From Octopus sinensis (Eukaryota): a stretch of DNA of 10,903 bases. The stretch covers positions 1-10,903 of the forward strand of contig NW_021827213.1 in the NCBI RefSeq assembly GCF_006345805.1. The letters are read 5' to 3'. Shown here one piece after another: positions 1,126 through 10,616 of the stretch. The notes under the pieces were generated by a model. That model did not search any database, was not told where the DNA came from, and worked only from the letters and a program-made list of their open reading frames with translations. Both the position numbers and the translations under genes were made by a program. Each line of letters opens with the position of its first letter. Position 1 is the first letter of the stretch.

Positions 1126-1208
<83 letters not shown>

Positions 1209-1385
1209 TTCATTACTATTATTATCATTATTATTATTATCATTATTATTATATCATTATTATCATATATTATTATTATTATATTATTATTATTATTATC
1301 ATCATCATCATTATTATATTATTATTATTATATTATTTTATGATTATATTATTATCATTATTATTATTTTTGTTATTATTATTAT
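957..1385 (+). repeat. Compound microsatellite (CTT/CCT)n then (ATT)n
   Basis: CTT/CCT about 957-1060; ATT with ATC variants about 1061-1385. Confidence 0.97.
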
Positions 1386-1534
1386 GACGAGGTTATTTTT
1401 GTATGAAATTCCTAAACGTTCACGGTGTATATATATATGTGTTATTGACGCCTGAAGACATGGATGCAAACGACAGAAAGGCGTAAACAAACCATCAATG
1501 TATCCATCCTTCAGTCCCACATGCCATCGACGAA

Positions 1535-1810
1535 ACACACCCACGCACACACACACACACACATACACACACATACACACCGACACACACGCACACACAC
1601 ACATATATATATCTATGTGTGTGTGTGTCAGAGTGTCAGTGTTTGTGTAGGAAGTGTGTATATGAGAGGACGTATATATATACACACATAAACACGCACG
1701 TCTGTGGGTGGGTGTAGATAGCCAAGAGGAAACGCCTGTGGAGCATTGATACAAATTGTCGATATTTTAATATATTTTTACCACACTTGTATTTTCCGGT
1801 GTTTATTGTG

Positions 1811-1845
<35 letters not shown>

Positions 1846-1942
1846 ATATATATATTAAAATATATATATACACACATATATACATACATGTGTGTGTATA
1901 TATGTATATATATATATATGTAAATATATACATATATACACG

Positions 1943-1973
<31 letters not shown>

Positions 1974-2737
1974 ATGTATATATGTATGCATATTTATATA
2001 TATATATATATATGTTTAGACGTACGTCTGTATGTGTGCATGTATGTGTAATATGTATATATATATATCTATATCTATATCTATCTCTCTGTCTGTCTGT
2101 CTCTCTCTCTCTCTGTCTCTCTCTTTATATATATAGTGCTTCTGTGTGTATTTCTCATACATTGTCATTAAGGTGTATATACACAGGTAGAAATGTACCT
2201 GAATACTCCAGGAAAATTCACACTCACATACACACACACACATACACACACACATACACACACACACACATACACACACACATACACACACACACACATA
2301 CAACACACACACACACATATACACTCACATACACACACATACACACACACACATACACACACACATAACCACACACACACATACACACCACATACACACA
2401 CACACATACACACACACACACACATACACCACCATACACACACACCATACACAACACACATACACACACACACACACACACACATACACACCATACACAC
2501 TCACATACACACACACATACACACACACACATACACACACACATACACACACACACACACACACACATACACACACACACACACACATACACACTCACAT
2601 ACACACACACATACACACACACACACACACATACACACACTCCCGAGCCTTGCGAATTGGTATGCAAGTGTTTATATAAACACACAGAATAGTATGTATG
2701 CCTTATACATACATACATAAAACCACTAACAGACATA

Positions 2738-2776
<39 letters not shown>

Positions 2777-3310
2777 CACTAAGACAAAGTGGAAACAATC
2801 AGACATGCTGACATGCAAAAGTGCTTATATACACGCAAACACACTCGCACACGCATACTTCGAAACAGCCGTGGAAACATAAATGCGTACACATATACAC
2901 GCATAGCATTCCCAACAACGTATGTATACGCATATATGTGTATGTGTGTATGTACGTATATATATTTGTGTGTGTATGTGTATATATATATATACATTTA
3001 CAGAGAGACGCACAAACATATAACCACCATGTTTATATATATCTGTGTGTGTTTGTGAGTGTGTAAATATACATGCATATATGCAAATATACATGCAGAT
3101 ATGCATATATATATATATACGTAGGTGTACATATATGTGCATGTATGTATATGAATATATAAATTACATATATATCCCCTTACACACAAGCACAGTATAT
3201 CTACAGATGCACACATACGTAGCTACACACATAATCGCACACGCAATCACAAATAACCGTGTACACACACACACATGCCCATTTGCAAATACACATACAC
3301 ACACCCAACC
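1535..3310. repeat. Degenerate CA/TG/TA/CT dinucleotide microsatellite field
   Basis: Alternating purine-pyrimidine tracts, including (CA)n with CATA interruptions at about 2220-2640, (TA)n at about 2740-2775 and (CT)n at about 2080-2125. Confidence 0.93.
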
Positions 3311-3571
3311 ACACACATATATATATATAATATACATACAACTACGTACATTACACTCGCGTACACATACATCCCCTCATACATCTATACACACACACAC
3401 ATATATAAATATACACATATACAACTACGTACATTACGCTCGCGTACACAAGCATCCCCTCATTCATCTATACACACTCACACATATATATATATACACA
3501 CATACAACTACGTACATTACGCTCGCGTACACATACATCCTCTCATACATCTACACACACTCACACACACT
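3311..3571 (+). repeat. 83-bp minisatellite, about 3 copies
   Basis: ACAACTACGTACATTAC(A/G)CTCGCGTACAC..CATCC(C/T)CTCAT(A/T)CATCTA recurs at 3338, 3421 and 3504 (period 83). Confidence 0.92.
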
Positions 3572-4019
3572 CTCGTAAGAACATAATCAAGTTAGGCCGT
3601 TAAATTCTGAAGGCGGCCATTAAGAGAATCGCCATTTTCTTTACAAGCCATTGATGTTGGCAGATATCTGAGCAGTCTTTTAATCTTTTAGACTCTTTTG
3701 GCTTCGATTTAACCATTCCACATTGTTGGGAGGTTATTGTCCAATTCTTCAGCCGTGTGGAAAGCCAGATAGTTAGCTACAGCTGTGCCGCGCCTTCTGC
3801 GTTTTGCTCTTTTTGCTTTGAAACCTTCCATTTTTTTTTTTATTTATCTATTTTTTTCTTGTATTTTTATTTTAATTTCTTTTTGCTTTTTTTTTCTGTA
3901 TGTATGTGTTGTATTTTGTGAGCTTTTCCAAAATCTTTCCATGTTACGATATACCTGAAACAGCGAAAAGGGGGGGGGGGAAGAAAAGTCCCGCATTTGT
4001 GCGCATGTGCGTAGGTTCC

Positions 4020-5270
4020 TCTATTTGTGAGTGTGTGCCTTGTATATATATATAATATATATGTATATATATGAATGCGTGTGTGCGTCTGTGTACATCT
4101 GTACAAACGTATGCGTGTCTTCGCTGCTGATCTGGATGAAAGTATGTATACATGTATGTGTATGCGTATATATATAAATATATATATAAATATATATATA
4201 TATATACACATATATATATATGCACGCACACATATATATATGTATATGTTGGTGTGTCTATGTGTATATATGAATGTATTATATCATATATATACGCATA
4301 TATATATATATATATAATATATGTATATATATCTATCTATATATATGCATATATATATATATATACGTGCTACATTAAAGCATATAGGGATGTATATACC
4401 TATGTGTATGTGTGTATGTCTGTGTGTTAGAGTGCTAGATGATCGTATATATATACATATATGTATATAAATATGTGTGTGTGTATTTTATGTAAATGCG
4501 TACATGTTTGTGAGCGGCATAAAGATATATAGGCTTGTACGTATATGCAGATATATATTTGTGTGTGTGTCTGAATTTGTGTATGTGTGTGTATGTTACT
4601 GTTGCCATCTCTGTGTATTTCTATACTTATTAGTATGTTACATCCGTGCGTGTGCTGGATGAAGATACGTATTTGAGTATGAGAATATATGGTGTAAACA
4701 TACATATATATGTATATATATATATACATAATTATATATACACATATGCATTCATATATATATATATTATGTATATATGCATTCATATATATATAGATAC
4801 ACAAGCATACATATATAAATATACACACATATATACATGTATATACACATAATTATATATATATTCGTGTCCATATGTATGCATGTTTATGTGGTGTATA
4901 AAGATCTATACGCCTGTATCTAGATATGTACGTATGTACATTAATGAAAGTATGCAAGCATACATACTTGTATATATATATATTTGTGTGTGTGTGTGTG
5001 TGGTGTCTGTGTATGCGTGTGTGTGTATTTGTATGTGTATATATATATATATGTGTGTGTGTGTAGAGGGGGGGTGTATCTACATATGTTCTAACTTGTG
5101 GATATGTGAGCGGATGTATGTGTACGGAAGAGTAACGTGCGTCGTTGTATGCCTGTACACACATACACATGCACACACACACATGCACACACACAAACAT
5201 GCACACACACACACACATATATATATTTAGTGAGTGTGTGTGTATGTTTCTGTTTGTATGTATGTTTATT
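4020..5270. repeat. Degenerate TA/TG microsatellite field
   Basis: Low-complexity TATG/TGTG/TATA sequence with short unique interruptions. Confidence 0.9.
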
Positions 5271-5429
5271 TGCAAGTGTGCATGGATAAACATTAGAACA
5301 TTGGCGAAGAACATCAAAATCAATTTAATAGAAACTGCACTCAATACGTGTTACGATGTGGATTACACATAATATTTATTTAAATATATGAATATATATT
5401 TCACATCTACGAGAAACCTTCATGTTTTT

Positions 5430-5538
5430 TTTCAGAACGCTTCTCAACGATTTGCATAATCGTGGATAGGGTTTGAACCCCACAGGTTTTGGGTCCAATC
5501 CCAAAGTTTCTAGCTCTAAGGATATCGCAAAACCCCTG
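5430..5538 (-). mobile_element. Possible terminal fragment of a hAT-like DNA transposon
   Basis: Minus strand begins CAGGGGTTTTGCG, a CAGGGG start typical of hAT termini, where the mariner homology stops. No partner TIR seen. Confidence 0.3.
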
Positions 5539-5544
5539 GCTGGA

Positions 5545-5691
5545 TTTCTTTTACAAGGCTTAGAAAAGCTGAGGGATCGGTGTAATAAGTGTGTGAATCT
5601 AAGAGGGGAATATTTTGAATAAAATCATGATTAGCTAGTCCTTCAGTCTTTTCTTTTACTCCAAAGCCAGGAACTTTTCAGCAGGCCCTCA
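5545..5691 (+). mobile_element. 3' end of a mariner (Tc1/mariner) transposon: transposase C-terminus remnant and 3' TIR
   Basis: 5545-5622 translates FLLQGLEKLRDRCNKCVNLRGEYFE*, matching the mariner C-terminal pattern G..KL..RW.KC....G.Y.E*. It is followed by TIR-like AAAGCCAGGAACTTTTCAGCAGGCCCTCA ending in TA. Confidence 0.85.
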
Positions 5692-5744
5692 TATATATGT
5701 ATATATAATATATTTATATATATATATATATATAATAATATATA

Positions 5745-6363
5745 ATTGAAATTCGGGGTGAGTACTTGATAATTGTAAGCACCTGTATATACCGTTTGGT
5801 GTTTGGTCCGTAACTACTATATATCCCTTATCCTTATATTCTTTTACACTTTTTATTTTTATTTTTATAACTTTATACCTTTATATTCACTTATATCTTT
5901 TTATATTTTTTATATCTGTTTATATCTTTATACTCTACATTTTATATTTTCTATACTTACACTTTTTATATATTTTTTATCCTTCGTCCTGAATTCACGC
6001 CCCTCCATCTTTATCTCTATTTGCTCTTATTACCAGGTCCTTCACGTCTGTCTGTATTTATATATTTATATATGTATATATTTATTTATTTATTATTTAT
6101 ATTACTTCAACATCCAAACTTCCTCATTCTATTGAGAGAAGAACGAGATGGACGCTTCATTTTTATGCTGCTGCCGCATTACATCGTACGCGAATGAGAG
6201 ATTTGCATCCCCAACCAAGAATTTTTGATGTAATACATGTCCTTGAAGAAGTAGTTGTGCGCGGCTGAAGAAGGCCACAGCGCACATTATGCACTGTTAT
6301 AAATCCGTCTATAAAAGCCCGAAACATATTACCGCTGAATCCTTGGCATCATTTTTTATTTTA

Positions 6364-6367
<4 letters not shown>
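5745..6367 (+). mobile_element. Putative non-coding Penelope-like/retrozyme remnant bounded by (TA)n on both sides
   Basis: Unique T-rich unit between TA tracts, with a hammerhead-like motif about 30 nt before its 3' end. Confidence 0.45.
6261..6335 (+). ncRNA. Minimal type I hammerhead ribozyme-like motif (degenerate stem III, branched stem II)
   Basis: GCGG-CTGAAGA-AGGC..[two internal hairpins]..GCCC-GAAA-CATAT-TA-CCGC. Stem I is GCGG/CCGC. Confidence 0.55.

Positions 6368-6426
<59 letters not shown>
6368..6426. repeat. (TA)n microsatellite
   Basis: About 25 perfect TA units plus a degenerate end. Confidence 0.97.
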
Positions 6427-6526
6427 CTACTACAATATAGGATGAAGTCCCTTTCTCTACAGAAAAAGATTCCATCAAAAAGCGTTGCAGTATATTAAAA
6501 AACCCCTTTACGGTTGAAGTATAAAC

Positions 6527-6862
6527 ATCTTATAATTAAGGGCTAAAGAAGGTTATTCTAAAGCCAAATACACTGATTTATCCACTTATAATCCACTTGT
6601 TACAGGAAAATTGAACTGAAAGCGGGCAACTAACCTTTAGAAAATTTAAATTTCGTTATCTCTATATTGAATCAATTTCGGAATTAATCTATAAATGATA
6701 CATTCTTCTTCAGTAGAGCTTACGAGGGAACATAAATAAAATACTCACATGTGATCATGGAAAAAGCAGAAACTAAAAACACAACTATATTTAAGTACAT
6801 ATATAAGTGGATAAATCAGTGTATTGGTTATAGAATAACCTTCTTTAGCCCTTAATTATAAG

Positions 6863-6864
<2 letters not shown>
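6527..6864 (-). mobile_element. Element with 63/64-bp inverted repeats enclosing a hammerhead (Penelope-like pLTR with inverted 5' piece, or MITE)
   Basis: 6527-6590 is the reverse complement of 6802-6864, with 2 mismatches and 1 indel. The right end abuts (TA)n. A further 100 bp or so of unique sequence (6427-6526) separates the left arm from (TA)n. Confidence 0.75.
6653..6725 (-). ncRNA. Type I hammerhead ribozyme
   Basis: Minus strand: TCGTaagCTCTA-CTGAAGA-aGAAT..ATTCc-GAAA-TTGAtTCAA-TA-TAGAGataACGA. All core nucleotides are present. Stem I is 5+4 bp, stem II is 4 bp with an A.C at its base, and stem III is ATTGA/TCAAT. Confidence 0.8.
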
Positions 6865-6895
<31 letters not shown>

Positions 6896-6896
<1 letters not shown>

Positions 6897-7087
6897 ATCA
6901 AAATAAGCAACAAGGATATCCAGAGGTAATGCCGTACGATCGTTTCATGCAACTCCATTTAATTGATTGTAATCACTTTACTTTGAAATTGTATGGATAA
7001 TACCGTACTAAATTCTGGTGCCTCAACTTAAGTACCATATTCATCTGAATCTCAATTTTTGATGAACTCATCTACCATACCCAATAT
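6896..7087 (-). mobile_element. Truncated Penelope-like remnant carrying a hammerhead 3' half
   Basis: Minus strand GAAA-CGATCG-TA (6946-6935) lies about 40 nt from (TA)n. The upstream side is cut by the SINE at 7088. Confidence 0.4.
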
Positions 7088-7343
7088 GGAGGTGTGTCTC
7101 CTAGTGGCTAGTGTGTCAGCATAATGATCGTAAGATTGTGGTTTCGATTCATGGACCGGGCGACGCGTTGTGTTCTTGAGCCAAACACTTCATTTCACGA
7201 TGCTCCAGTCCACTCAGCTGGCAAAAATGAGTAACGCTGCGATGGACTGGTGTCCCGTCCATCTGGGGAACACATACGCCATAGAAACCGGAAAACCGGG
7301 CCCATGAGCCTGGCTTGGCTTTAAAAGGGCGCATTTATTTATT
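7088..7343 (+). mobile_element. tRNA-derived SINE, full length (second family)
   Basis: A-box-like CTCCTAGTGG, B-box-like GTTTCGATTC, central CTGCGATGGACTGGTGTCCCGTCCA (resembles recalled Meta/V-type SINE domains) and (TTTA)n tail. A second copy lies at 7446. Confidence 0.85.
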
Positions 7344-7445
7344 ATTTAAAGAAATTGGTAATTAAACATTTTACGCTTATCAACTTGAAACGACTTTTAA
7401 CTCTTGGCTAATTTAATTTAAATTGATAATAAATTTCACCATCCA

Positions 7446-7648
7446 AAGATTGTGGTTTCGATTCCTGGACCGGGCGACGCTTTGTGTTCTTGAGCCAAAC
7501 ACTTCATTTCACGTTGCTCCAGTCCACTCAGCTGGCAAAAATGAGTACGCTGCGATGGACTGGTGTCCCGTCCAGCTGGGGAACACATACGCCATAGAAA
7601 CCAGGAAACCGGGCCCATGAGCCTGGCTAGGCTTTAAAAAGGGTACAT
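7446..7648 (+). mobile_element. 5'-truncated copy of the SINE at 7088
   Basis: Direct repeat of about 7132-7334 with roughly 10 differences in about 200 bp (by eye). Confidence 0.88.
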
Positions 7649-7663
7649 GTGATATTTTTTAAA

Positions 7664-7710
7664 CAGCGGCGCATCAGCATGACTGCAGCTCTGAGCTGAA
7701 ACTAGAAATA
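7664..7710 (+). mobile_element. Decayed 3' tail fragment related to the tail of the large SINE
   Basis: GCGGCGCATCAGCATGACTGCAGC..CTGAAACTAG versus GTGGTGCTCCAGCATGGCCGCAA..CTGAAACAAG at about 10038-10078. Confidence 0.5.
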
Positions 7711-7965
7711 TATATATATGAACAACAAGAAGGAAAATGCTACTTCCTTAAAATTGGGCACATTTTAATTTTCTTTTTACATGTTTCGGCTTTTGAAAAA
7801 AACTTATTATAAAAAGTATGTGCTAAAATGGAATATGTAAAAGAAAAGAACTATTACAAAAATTAAATTTAAATTAAGATTAAGATTAACATCCATAGTT
7901 TACTTTCCTTTTTCCTGCAAGAACACGTGATAGTATCCTTTGGTCCTGGTAGCATGACAAGTCTT

Positions 7966-8015
7966 TTGTGTGTCTGTGTTTGTCCTCCCAACATCGCTTG
8001 ACACCCGATGCTGGT
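7966..8015 (+). mobile_element. Internal fragment of the large SINE family
   Basis: TTTGTCCTCCCAACATCGCTTGACACCCGATGCTGGTG matches about 9899-9936. Confidence 0.7.
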
Positions 8016-8082
8016 GCCTATGATGTAGTTATATTTGCTGCATCTTGTTTCATTCGTAATTCTTATTCATCATTGCTCTATA

Positions 8083-8291
8083 TCTTTTGCTCTCTTTTAC
8101 TTGTTTCAGTCATTTGACTGCGGCCATGCTGGAGCACCGCCTTTTAGTTGAGCAAATCTACCCAGGGACTTATTCTTTGTAAGCCCAATATTTATTCTAT
8201 CGGTCTCTTTTGCCGAACCGGTAAGTGACGGGGACGTAAACACACCAGCATCGGTTGTCAAGCAATGCTAGGGGGACAAACACAGACACAC

Positions 8292-8339
<48 letters not shown>

Positions 8340-8502
8340 CTAGGGGCTTCTTTCAGTTTCCGTCTACCAAATCCACTCACAAAGCATTGCTCGGCCCGGG
8401 GCTATAACAGAAGACACTTGCCCAAGGTGCCACACAGTGGGACTGAACCCGGAACCATGTGGTTGGTTAGCAAGCTACTTACCACACAACCACTCCTGCG
8501 CC
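8083..8502 (-). mobile_element. Large tRNA-derived SINE with internal (TA)(TG) microsatellite, copy 1
   Basis: Head GGCGCAGGAGTGGTTGTGTGGTAAG, B-box GGTTCAGTCCC, (AGTAAAAG)-type tail. Highly similar to 9227-9617 and 9682-10102. Confidence 0.92.
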
Positions 8503-8796
8503 ATATATATTTAAATTAATTGAAAAACCTACAATAGTTTTCAAAATAAGAATCGGGCGAAACTTTTTATACACCCAGTGTATAAATGAGTAAAAAAGAT
8601 ATACAGGTGTCAGTAGCTTACGGCCGTTTCAAGCGACTTCTTTAATTTATTAATGAAAATATTACATCATTTGAGGGAAACCGTTCTCGGAAGACGACCG
8701 CATAGTCTTCAGACAAAGAATATAACCCTTTCCATAACATATTCACATCAATAATAGAACTCTAAAAAATTGTTTCTTTTCATCGGAACCTTTATT

Positions 8797-8827
8797 ACAC
8801 ACACACACACACACACACACGCGCGCG
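8797..8827 (+). repeat. (CA)n(CG)n microsatellite
   Basis: CA run followed by CGCGCGCG. Confidence 0.9.
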
Positions 8828-8829
8828 GG

Positions 8830-8898
8830 CACACGTTGATGGAATGACGTCATCAGTTTTTAAGTTACAATTTCATAAATGGCAACAGGAAAACCAGG

Positions 8899-8934
<36 letters not shown>

Positions 8935-8978
8935 GAAAGAAAATAGAAAAGGAGAAGAGCGCGATAACGATTAAGTTT
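8830..8978 (-). repeat. Left arm of a ~140-bp imperfect inverted repeat (partner 10167-10304)
   Basis: CACACGTTGATGGAATGACGTCATCAGTTTTTAAGTTACAATTT versus the reverse complement of the right arm, CACACATTGATGGAATGACATCATCAGTCTTCAAGTTTCAATTT. Similarity continues through the purine-rich stretch. Confidence 0.85.
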
Positions 8979-9226
8979 TTTACCTGATAAAAATGTCGAT
9001 ATCTTATTTTCTGATTCGTGTTCGAATGGTGCAAAATCCACTGGCCCAGGATTGAGCCCTACACTGGGGCCTAGCGAAACTAACAGGGCTGACGAGCCAA
9101 CCGTAAGAAGTAGTAAAATGCAAAAGCCGTAATTTACGTTACGATTTACCTTAGCCACCCGGATGTTTTGGTAATTTCCAGAATTTTTTAATATTCCGTT
9201 TCTTATTCGGTGTAACATAAAATCAA

Positions 9227-9617
9227 TCTCTTTTACTTGTTTCAGTCATTTGACTGCGGCCATGCTGGAGCACCGTCTTTAGTCGAGCAAATCGACCACG
9301 GGACTTATTCTTTTGTAAGCCCAGTACTTATTGTATCGGTCTCTTTTGCCGAACCGCTAAATGACGGGGACATAAACACACGAGCATCGGTTGTCAAACA
9401 ATGCTAGGGGGATAAACACAAACACACAAACACACACATGTATATATATACATACGAGAGGCTTCTTTCAGTTTCCGTCTACCAAATCCACTCACAAGGC
9501 TTTGGTCGGCCCGAGGCTATAGTAGAAGACACTTGCCCAAGGTGCCACGCAATGGGACTGAACCCGGAACAATGTGGTTGGTAAGCAAGCTACTTACCAC
9601 ACAGCCACTCCTGCGTC
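9227..9617 (-). mobile_element. Large tRNA-derived SINE, copy 2
   Basis: Full-length match to copies 1 and 3. Possible short TSD AATCT (9225-9229 / 9620-9624). Confidence 0.92.
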
Positions 9618-9681
9618 TTAATCTATTTGATTTTGTTATTTTAAAAGGATTGATGTAAATCCTCATAAAGGTAAACAGACA

Positions 9682-10102
9682 GGCGCAGGAGTGGCTGTGT
9701 GGTAAGTAGCTTGCTTACCAGCCATATGGTTCCGGGTTCAGTCCTACTGCGTAACATATTGGGCAAGTGTCTTCTGCTATAGCCTCGGGCCGACCAAAGC
9801 CTTGTGGGTGGATTTGGTAGACGGAAACTGAAAGAAGCCTGTCCTATATATGTATATATATATATGTGTATGTGTTTGTGTGTGAGTGTTTGACTGTATT
9901 TGTCCCCCTAGCATTGCTTGACAACCGATGCTGGTGTGTTTACGTCCCCGTCACTTAGCGGTTCGGCAAAAGAGACCGATAGAATAAGTACTGGGCTTAC
10001 AAATAATAAGTCCCGGGGTCGATTTGCTCGACTAAAGGTGGTGCTCCAGCATGGCCGCAATCAAATGACTGAAACAAGTAAAAGAGTAAAAGAGTAAAAG
10101 AG
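9682..10102 (+). mobile_element. Large tRNA-derived SINE, copy 3
   Basis: GGCGCAGGAGTGGCTGTGTGGTAAG head, B-box GGTTCAGTCC, tail (AGTAAAAG)3. Possible TSD AGACA. Confidence 0.92.
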
Positions 10103-10166
10103 ACAAGACGAACACCGCGATGCGATTGTAATAGATATTTTATTCGATGAGCGGTATTTCGACTGC

Positions 10167-10304
10167 AAGACTTTCGGTTTCGTGCCTTTCTTCTTTTTCC
10201 TTTTATTATTTCTTTCCTTTTTTCCTCTCATTTTTTTCTTTTTCTTTTCGCCAGTTATAAAAATTGAAACTTGAAGACTGATGATGTCATTCCATCAATG
10301 TGTG
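10167..10304 (+). repeat. Right arm of the inverted repeat (partner 8830-8978)
   Basis: About 8 differences over the outer 56 nt, weaker inward. Confidence 0.85.
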
Positions 10305-10369
10305 GACACTGGTTGCTCTCGTTCATACTCTACGTTTGAATTTCTTATTATTTTCATCTCTTTTTTATT

Positions 10370-10413
10370 TTGAACTCGACAAAGACAGGCTTGCCTCTCG
10401 AAATATCGTTCAA
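10370..10413 (+). ncRNA. Minimal type I hammerhead variant (U3-A8 core)
   Basis: TTGAAC-TCGACAA-A-GACAGGC-TT-GCCTCTC-GAAA-TA-TC-GTTCAA. Stem I is 6 bp, stem II pairs at 6 of 7 positions and stem III is palindromic ATAT. The core has U3/A8 in place of C3/G8, plus U4>C. Confidence 0.6.
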
Positions 10414-10437
10414 CCAATGAAATATCATTCCATTCGC

Positions 10438-10616
10438 AATAATGATTATGATAATAATAATAATAATAATATAATAATAATAATAATATAATAATAATAA
10501 TATATAATAATAATAATGATAATGATAATAATAATAATACTATAATAATAATAATACTAATAATAATGAATAATAATAATAATAATAATAATATAATAAA
10601 TTATAATAATAATAAT
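10438..10616 (+). repeat. (AAT)n microsatellite, imperfect
   Basis: Long AAT run with GAT/TAT/ACT interruptions. Confidence 0.96.

Follow-up and report, generated by a model that had tools for sequence, protein, structure and literature searches.

Hammerhead ribozymes of Penelope-like elements (PLEs), octopus Hydra elements and the PLE-derived non-long terminal repeat (non-LTR) retrozymes of animals are all known already, and the mobility of animal retrozymes by PLEs through RNA circles is still a hypothesis. Here we describe a 10,903-nucleotide stretch of the Octopus sinensis genome (contig NW_021827213.1, referred to over its full length as the window), in which six divergent hammerhead motifs lie within 4.2 kb. 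We consider it highly probable that these represent six independent insertions, five of them 5'-truncated 3' ends of PLEs with a hammerhead, and one a tandem retrozyme-type unit that lacks an open reading frame (ORF) and was likely mobilised by PLEs.

Octopus PLEs of the Hydra (Hydra-1_Obim) and Naiad clades that target (TA)n have been listed before (PMC8557442), and 31 recently active Penelope-like families are reported from O. vulgaris (PMC13282606). Because PLE-end hammerheads are known and octopus (TA)n PLEs are catalogued, five of the six units are ordinary, and an earlier preliminary description of this stretch, which suggested that such elements may be poorly catalogued in cephalopods, does not hold for PLEs. 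It fares better for retrozymes, as literature searches returned none from a cephalopod, although the supplements of PMC7229834 and of a 2026 preprint by Li, Clavereau and Pollet may list some. The main gain is the retrozyme-type unit, a testable young retrozyme.

Six hammerhead motifs in the window

The units are named U1 to U6 from left to right in the window, and the assembly searched comprises 2.72 Gb. All six GAAA-stem III-UH motifs noted previously are present at the coordinates reported for them and, as was also reported, three retain the 5' core and stem I: U1 (6261–6335), U2 (6718–6660) and U6 (10370–10413, with the variant core TCGACAA). The window copies of U3, U4 and U5 have broken hammerheads; decay has affected the core in U4 (TTATAAT region) and in U5 (CTTCCGA), and U3 has lost its 5' half through truncation. 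The features are as follows.

5745–5801, minus strand: U1 inverted 'tail' piece at the 5' junction, adjoining (TA)n at 5691–5744
5800–6366, plus strand: U1, 5'-truncated 3' untranslated region (UTR)/pseudo-LTR of a putative Hydra-type PLE, ending in (TA)n at 6367–6426
6261–6335, plus strand: U1 hammerhead, with stem I GCGG/CCGC, core CUGAAGA and stem III CATAT (family CATATG)
6425–6800, minus strand: U2, 5'-truncated unit (about positions 110–483) of an ORF-less 486-nt retrozyme-type repeat
6660–6718, minus strand: U2 hammerhead, intact, with CTCTA/TAGAG, CUGAAGA, GAAT/ATTC, stem III TTGA-T-TCAA and an AUA site
6802–6871, plus strand: U2 inverted piece, ending at the short 3' end of the family and adjoining (TA)n at 6863–6896
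6897–6965, minus strand: U3, 3' half of the hammerhead only (GAAA CGATCG TA) and 3' end, the 5' half lost by truncation
6963–7084, plus strand: U3 inverted tail piece
7706–7962, minus strand: U4, 3' end of a putative Neptune-like PLE, with a decayed hammerhead at 7815–7770 (family core UUGAUAA, a U3-A8 variant; stem III CATG)
8581–8780, minus strand: U5, 3' end of a probable old PLE related to U3, with a decayed hammerhead at about 8697–8610 (family core CUGACGA, stem III CGGCCG)
8830–9228, minus strand: U6 inverted copy, far part, in which the 5' body of the element is joined to a pseudo-LTR piece
9620–9681, minus strand: inverted U6 copy, its tail part lying between two SINE-like (short interspersed element-like) insertions at about 9230–9617 and 9681–10102
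10098–10175, minus strand: inverted U6 copy, with the 3' half of another, decayed hammerhead
10185–10438, plus strand: U6, 3' end of a putative Neptune-like PLE, ending in (AAT)n at 10438–10616
10370–10413, plus strand: U6 minimal hammerhead, with TTGAAC/GTTCAA, core UCGACAA (U3-A8 with C4), minimal stem III and an AUC site; stem II is damaged in the window copy

With a strict type I descriptor, which undercounts U3, U4, U5 and the U2 array subfamily, U2 is the only window motif to pass (1 match, where 300 shuffles averaged 0.007); five motifs pass in 600 kb of genome sampled at even spacing, versus 0, 0, 1, 0 and 1 in shuffles. The signature with arms of at least 3 bp is found 6 times versus 0.63 expected, a count reached in none of 300 shuffles and one of 120 random genome windows, with three of the six matches being AT-rich decoys. 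The bare signature is weak and not enriched at its loosest, with 13 occurrences between 6261 and 10413 versus 7.8 in shuffles (p 0.08), and five of these 13 are motifs noted previously and eight are others. No hammerhead family is among the 150 of 179 Rfam matches listed for the window, which are mostly miRNA-like and on microsatellites.

Family copies restore the hammerhead

On sequence grounds all six motifs are real, each lying in a multi-copy family whose other copies have a full type I hammerhead. For each unit 40 candidates were scored of 183–2300 first-look candidates (identity about 78–97%). The best 20 matches per search were taken as loci and cores were counted over all distinct copies among these, so the counts lean towards copies resembling that of the window. 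The CUGANGA core is kept in 31 of 32 copies of U1 (CUGAAGA in all 31), 38 of 43 of U2, 25 of 29 of U3 and at least 32 of 46 of U5. The U4 core, UUGAUAA, is exact in 14 of 23 copies, with nucleotides U3 and A8 in all 23; that of U6, UCGACAA, is likewise exact in 14 of 23, with nucleotide U3 in 23, C4 in 19 and A8 in 22. Stems I, II and III pair in type I order across the families with a different sequence in each, stem I of U4 having only 3 bp. The type I core (C3/U3-U4-G-A-N-G8/A8-A, GAAA and a UH site) is therefore present at family level with U6 deviating at position 4, and the earlier expectation that family copies would restore core and stems, examined for every unit, is borne out. U3-A8 is a known natural hammerhead covariant (PMC4209133; PMC3088659), and U4C reduces in vitro activity yet suffices in a viroid (PMC3088659). 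Standard descriptors would miss the U3-A8/C4 core of U6.

Stem III of U1, previously called degenerate (CATAT), is so in the window copy, but the family has CATATG in 29 of 32 copies. Seven bases are deleted from the window copy, including the stem III G, and none from 19 other top matches, so these deletions may be an assembly error. The stem III palindromes are calculated to pair between two molecules at −4.6 to −14.1 kcal/mol for U1–U5, with no such pairing for U6, and do not form hairpins, which fits a dimer model.

Five further hammerhead families are present in the 600-kb sample (L175, L200, L204, L205 and L212), with palindromic stem III CAATTG, TTGGTCCAA, CGTACG, CCTAGG and CATATG. The density in this sample extrapolates to the order of 20,000 strict motifs genome-wide.

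Insertion ends and microsatellite targets

Every family has two main 3' ends, located 25 (approximately) and 99 nt past the reference hammerhead in U1, 123 and 222 in U2, 25 and 145 in U3, 46 and 89 in U4, 20–28 and 285 in U5, and 37 and 77 in U6, and these match the two internal reverse transcriptase (RT) start sites of the anole PLE (PMC11167929). Beyond the 3' end, the tract met first is TA in 28 of 32 (U1), 39 of 43 (U2), 27 of 29 (U3), 15 of 23 (U4) and 27 of 46 (U5) copies against a TA background of 10–18%, and AAT in 19 of 23 copies of U6 against an AAT background of 3–6%. The proposal that ribozyme-bearing retroelement families target TA and AAT tracts is supported. That each window motif is followed by a microsatellite boundary is correct for U1, U2, U3, U4 (although only (TA)4) and U6, but not for U5, where an unrelated 78-nt piece (8503–8580) separates the end of the unit at 8581 from (TA)4. 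This piece matches no other compared locus, and one of its ends has what we take to be a resemblance to a DNA-transposon terminus. Inverted companion pieces, which had escaped notice, accompany U1, U2, U3 and U6 in the window, that of U6 being split by two SINE-like insertions.

Penelope-like relatives of U1, U3, U4, U5 and U6

The assignment to PLEs, made from sequence, is strong for U1, U4 and U6, and comes from one locus each for U3 and U5. A search for the U1-linked ORF gave 23,761 first-look candidates, with at least three frames of 842 codons. In one locus (L153) a hammerhead (1341) is followed by an 842-codon frame, a UTR of about 2 kb, a second hammerhead (6110), the tail and (TA)n; pseudo-LTRs with hammerhead, tandem or inverted insertions and the tail are seen in this and three other U1 loci (L151, L154 and L155). 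The protein has DKT, YRDD, a CxCX5C linker and, C-terminally, a GIY-YIG without CCHH but with CxxC and CxH, and RWK reads RWA. Its structural model (pLDDT 85.8) has telomerase reverse transcriptase 3du5 as top fold match (E 6e-9), and we predict a telomerase-like RT fold with a C-terminal GIY-YIG, that is, an endonuclease-positive (EN+) PLE. In its motifs U1 agrees with the published description of the Hydra clade (PMC8557442). Pfam and PDB sequence searches with the U1 ORF gave no RT call, and a profile reached a retron RT at E 0.01. In one locus, L151, positions 1191–6627 hold a partial tandem of the U1 family with three hammerheads, two of them spaced 891 nt apart.

Remnants of an RT thumb, a CxxC-x-CxxC-like linker and GIY-YIG lie upstream of U4 in two loci and in the inverted copy of a third (L077, L066 and L064 respectively), and RT thumb and GIY-YIG remnants lie upstream of U6 in five (L102, L103, L107, L111 and L116). 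The cysteine linker and internal cysteines are visible in broken U4 frames and less clear in U6, where as in U4 only fragments are available; compared with the published description, in which a CX2-5CxxC linker and a CCHH-type GIY-YIG come after the RT, these fragments suggest that U4 and U6 are Neptune-like. The Naiad clade, which has an N-terminal GIY-YIG and no canonical hammerhead, was rejected for U1, U4 and U6, in which GIY-YIG is C-terminal and hammerheads are present. A CTGATGA at 10278 was considered as the U6 core and rejected, there being no GAAA closing its stem. The jump from 5' body back into pseudo-LTR in the inverted U6 copy (8830–9228, minus strand) is an internal deletion seen once. 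The start of the U6 ORF, in this copy and downstream of the hammerhead in L103, has a hydrophobic stretch and an SVELNPG-like motif reminiscent of 2A peptides.

U3 and U5 are related, with flanks that match at 73–87% over about 50–65 nt, and the earlier statement that the flanks of the six motifs do not align with each other fails for this pair. A GGTGCYT..AAGTACY tail hairpin is common to U1 (15 of 32), U3 (15 of 29) and U5 (12 of 46), and is found in no copy of U2, U4 or U6. Long copies of U3 and U5 mostly have 1.7–2.6 kb of AT-rich, ORF-free sequence upstream. In two U3 loci (L287 and L288) this non-coding region contains an internal repeat of about 880 nt with about 70% identity.

U2, an ORF-less tandem repeat with PLE insertion marks

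The U2 unit is a head-to-tail repeat of 486–495 nt with a GC content of 34%. In all 24 loci the sequence 5' of unit position 1 is the unit's own 3' end (19 by BLAST and 5 by 5–20 matching bases). A query with two hammerheads retrieved arrays of a sister subfamily 86–87% identical to the window copy, and we examined 18 array loci picked for adjacent matches, counting hammerheads with a mismatch-tolerant pattern that favours intact ones. These contain 90 hammerhead matches, 2–9 per locus, at a spacing of 487–499 nt apart from four longer gaps that skip a unit, and the CUGAAGA core is present in 88 of the 90. Only 3 of the 90 pass the strict descriptor, stem II of this subfamily having three straight pairs and then an A.G mismatch. 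All 18 arrays end in (TA)n, at unit position 389, 396, 434 or about 485, whereas their 5' ends are scattered; seven contain inversions.

Units are 96–100% alike within arrays and 96–99.8% between them, an identical 495-nt unit is present in arrays on two contigs, and the arrays are young. Among 62 units the mean number of substitutions is 1.66 within versus 3.69 between arrays. The allele at 381 is all-or-none per array, that at 467 misses a single unit (in L310), and those at 178 and 402 are patchy; alleles that are mostly array-wide fit copying from one circular monomer, but homogeneous linear multimers are also compatible. The longest stop-free frame of the unit is 98 codons and no PLE protein match is found inside the arrays. 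The circular fold is stable (z −4.7 to −5.4), and diverged relatives (L200 and L328) keep the core with changed stems. By its sequence organisation U2 is a non-LTR retrozyme bearing PLE insertion marks, and by analogy it is likely that it was copied from circular RNA by PLE enzymes. The proposed link of the motifs to RT and GIY-YIG ORFs or to tandem arrays is found in both forms, in the PLE relatives and in U2 respectively.

Hydra-like ORFs near U2 were considered as partners and rejected, that of L012/L137 being separated by TA tracts and a SINE, and those of L162 and L317 lying 0.8–1.8 kb past the (TA)n boundary. A 20-nt motif search for a partner returned one diverged relative without an ORF. 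Parts of the unit are matched by contigs from sequencing runs presumed to be RNA; strand, ends and circles are not readable from them and they are not used as evidence. At about position 1500 of L328 (minus strand) a diverged U2-like unit lies just past an ankyrin-like coding end on the same strand and matches contigs of several such runs, and may sit in a host 3' UTR.

A model for insertion and its alternatives

By analogy with the anole PLE (PMC11167929), the GIY-YIG domain would nick a TA or AAT tract and reverse transcription would begin internally, downstream of the hammerhead, with the tail marked out by the two ends; it would usually halt early, leaving a 3' end with hammerhead, and a second priming would give an inverted piece. 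Two hammerheads would pair with each other through the short palindromic stem III, so that cleavage would depend on dimers or on assistance from a protein. In the case of U2, multimers would be transcribed and then cleaved into monomers of about 490 nt, which would be circularised and reverse-transcribed round the circle into arrays. Both hammerhead self-cleavage and the U2 circles are predictions from sequence and analogy.

The preliminary description saw several non-coding families here, and for all six to be retrozyme-like is now very improbable. The AT-rich, ORF-free sequence upstream of most long U3 and U5 copies and the ORF-less U2 agree with it, but U1 has intact hammerhead-ORF-hammerhead copies and U4 and U6 lead into remnants of RT and GIY-YIG (three and five loci respectively), so that it is already refuted for these three; long non-coding stretches are in any case expected given the UTR of about 2 kb of U1 itself. 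Of the six, only U2 has no ORF; the other five are coding PLEs of which a truncated end remains. That the motifs are chance matches in AT-rich DNA, to which the lack of enrichment of the loosest signature lends some colour, has a negligible probability and is refuted by the family alignments, since every unit is multi-copy and core, stems and palindrome are kept in different sequences. Hardly more credible is the reading that the cluster is under selection as a functional cassette for RNA processing within a host transcript. The density is far over background (the six unit references match two loci in 600 kb, where the strict descriptor finds its five motifs), but the motifs are spread over both strands, truncation or decay affects four of the six, their ages differ (82–96% identity to family), SINEs interrupt U6, and the ORFs of the window are low-complexity or repeat frames only, with no host gene seen.

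A more serious alternative, though an unlikely one, is that no circular RNA is involved and the hammerhead is a weak, inherited one, U2 arrays having arisen by PLE copying of linear multimeric transcripts or through duplication of the inserted DNA. Array-wide alleles are also expected from homogeneous parent arrays or gene conversion, stem II of the arrays is short, and PLE hammerheads cleave weakly in vitro (PMC4209133). DNA duplication, however, does not predict scattered 5' truncation together with fixed RT-like ends in (TA)n, and the core is kept throughout the arrays and in the diverged relatives. Several observations also weigh against PLE insertion and circular copying as we propose them. 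Insertion by the anole PLE in vitro does not need hammerhead cleavage (PMC11167929). Pfam placed none of six ORF fragments over its cut-off and called RVT_1 and GIY-YIG weakly, in 4 of 68 relatives each. The Hydra-like remnants upstream of U3 (L294, with a deletion at the junction) and U5 (L292, a short match at E 2e-6) are single cases. No partner PLE for U2 was found, U2 matches no PLE end among the compared loci and lacks the Hydra tail hairpin, and the window's own copy is a truncated monomer of a subfamily distinct from the long arrays. When folded singly, the window motifs show no advantage over shuffled sequence (z −0.9 to 0.1). Nesting elsewhere is uncommon: about 386 kb of flanks contain a single clear instance involving another of the six families, and target preference alone thus leaves six insertions in 4.2 kb unexplained.

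Nevertheless, we favour six independent insertions, and within this framework we tentatively entertain, at somewhat below an even chance, a more specific combination: that U2 remains active as a circular-RNA retrozyme and that each of its arrays was made in (TA)n by a PLE enzyme in a single event of rolling-circle reverse transcription, the fixed 3' ends marking RT starts on the circle, and that the U6 core (U3-A8 with C4) is a working natural double variant. If so, the genome itself would provide direct evidence of the proposed PLE-retrozyme partnership, and U2 a convenient system in which to test it. The PLE-mobilisation hypothesis can be tested at the bench because U2 arrays show PLE marks, the identical unit is present on two contigs, and the genome has intact PLE frames.

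Clustering and surrounding repeats

PLE-like protein remnants are present in 10 of 60 random 10-kb stretches. The pile-up is likely to reflect repeated use of one microsatellite-rich, repeat-tolerant stretch and not a functional cluster, which is the least supported step of our interpretation; the density of six in 4.2 kb is that of a window chosen after the fact. A SINE-like repeat with a tRNA-like head occupies 7085–7330 and 7440–7635 (95% alike) and is present in other loci. An abundant SINE-like repeat has three copies, at 8079–8516, 9230–9617 and 9681–10102, two of them head-to-head inverted, and is the source of a MIR530-like Rfam match at 9581–9718. Further repeats are an 83-nt tandem repeat at 3310–3567 (3.1 copies, 90% alike) and a short GC-rich repeat with a ACCCGAGCAACGCCGGG motif at 57–130 and 482–510 (three partial copies).

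Comparison with known systems

The octopus motifs share with the minimal hammerheads of PLE pseudo-LTRs (Cervera and de la Peña 2014, PMC4209133) type I topology, a short stem I, a palindromic stem III that is short or lacking, copies that are mostly solo and truncated, opposite-strand pairs, the U3-A8 covariant and, in U6, an extra nucleotide before G10.1-C11.1. They differ in that several families have a long loop 2 (about 27–75 nt from core to GAAA) and a non-canonical first stem II pair, U6 combines U3-A8 with C4, and stem III of U2 has 4-bp arms around one base. U1 resembles Hydra clade PLEs (Craig et al. 2021, PMC8557442) in its C-terminal GIY-YIG without CCHH, DKT, CxCX5C, CxxC, CxH, hammerhead and (TA)n target, a likeness to the clade description and not to the Hydra-1_Obim sequence; its unit is about 4.8–5.3 kb with a 3' UTR of about 2 kb, versus less than 3 kb described, and has RWA for RWK. 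U4 and U6 share with Neptune clade PLEs (PMC8557442) the RT thumb, a cysteine linker (less clear in U6), C-terminal GIY-YIG and microsatellite targets, although they are seen as broken fragments and U6 targets (AAT)n.

Poseidon of the green anole (Frangieh et al. 2024, PMC11167929) likewise has a tail delimited by two RT start sites, AT-rich targets and a hammerhead just upstream, but octopus tails are about 40–265 nt versus 30–40, and the U1 start codon is well downstream of the hammerhead. U2 agrees with non-LTR retrozymes (Cervera and de la Peña 2020, PMC7229834; Li, Clavereau and Pollet 2026 preprint) in being a head-to-tail repeat that lacks an ORF and has a single type I hammerhead in each unit, in its GC content and stable circular fold, and in ranging from monomers to multimers; its unit length exceeds the 170–400 nt of PMC7229834 and lies within the 51–972 bp of the preprint. 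It differs from them in that its arrays show PLE marks directly, in fixed internal 3' ends, 5' truncation, inversions and (TA)n targets.

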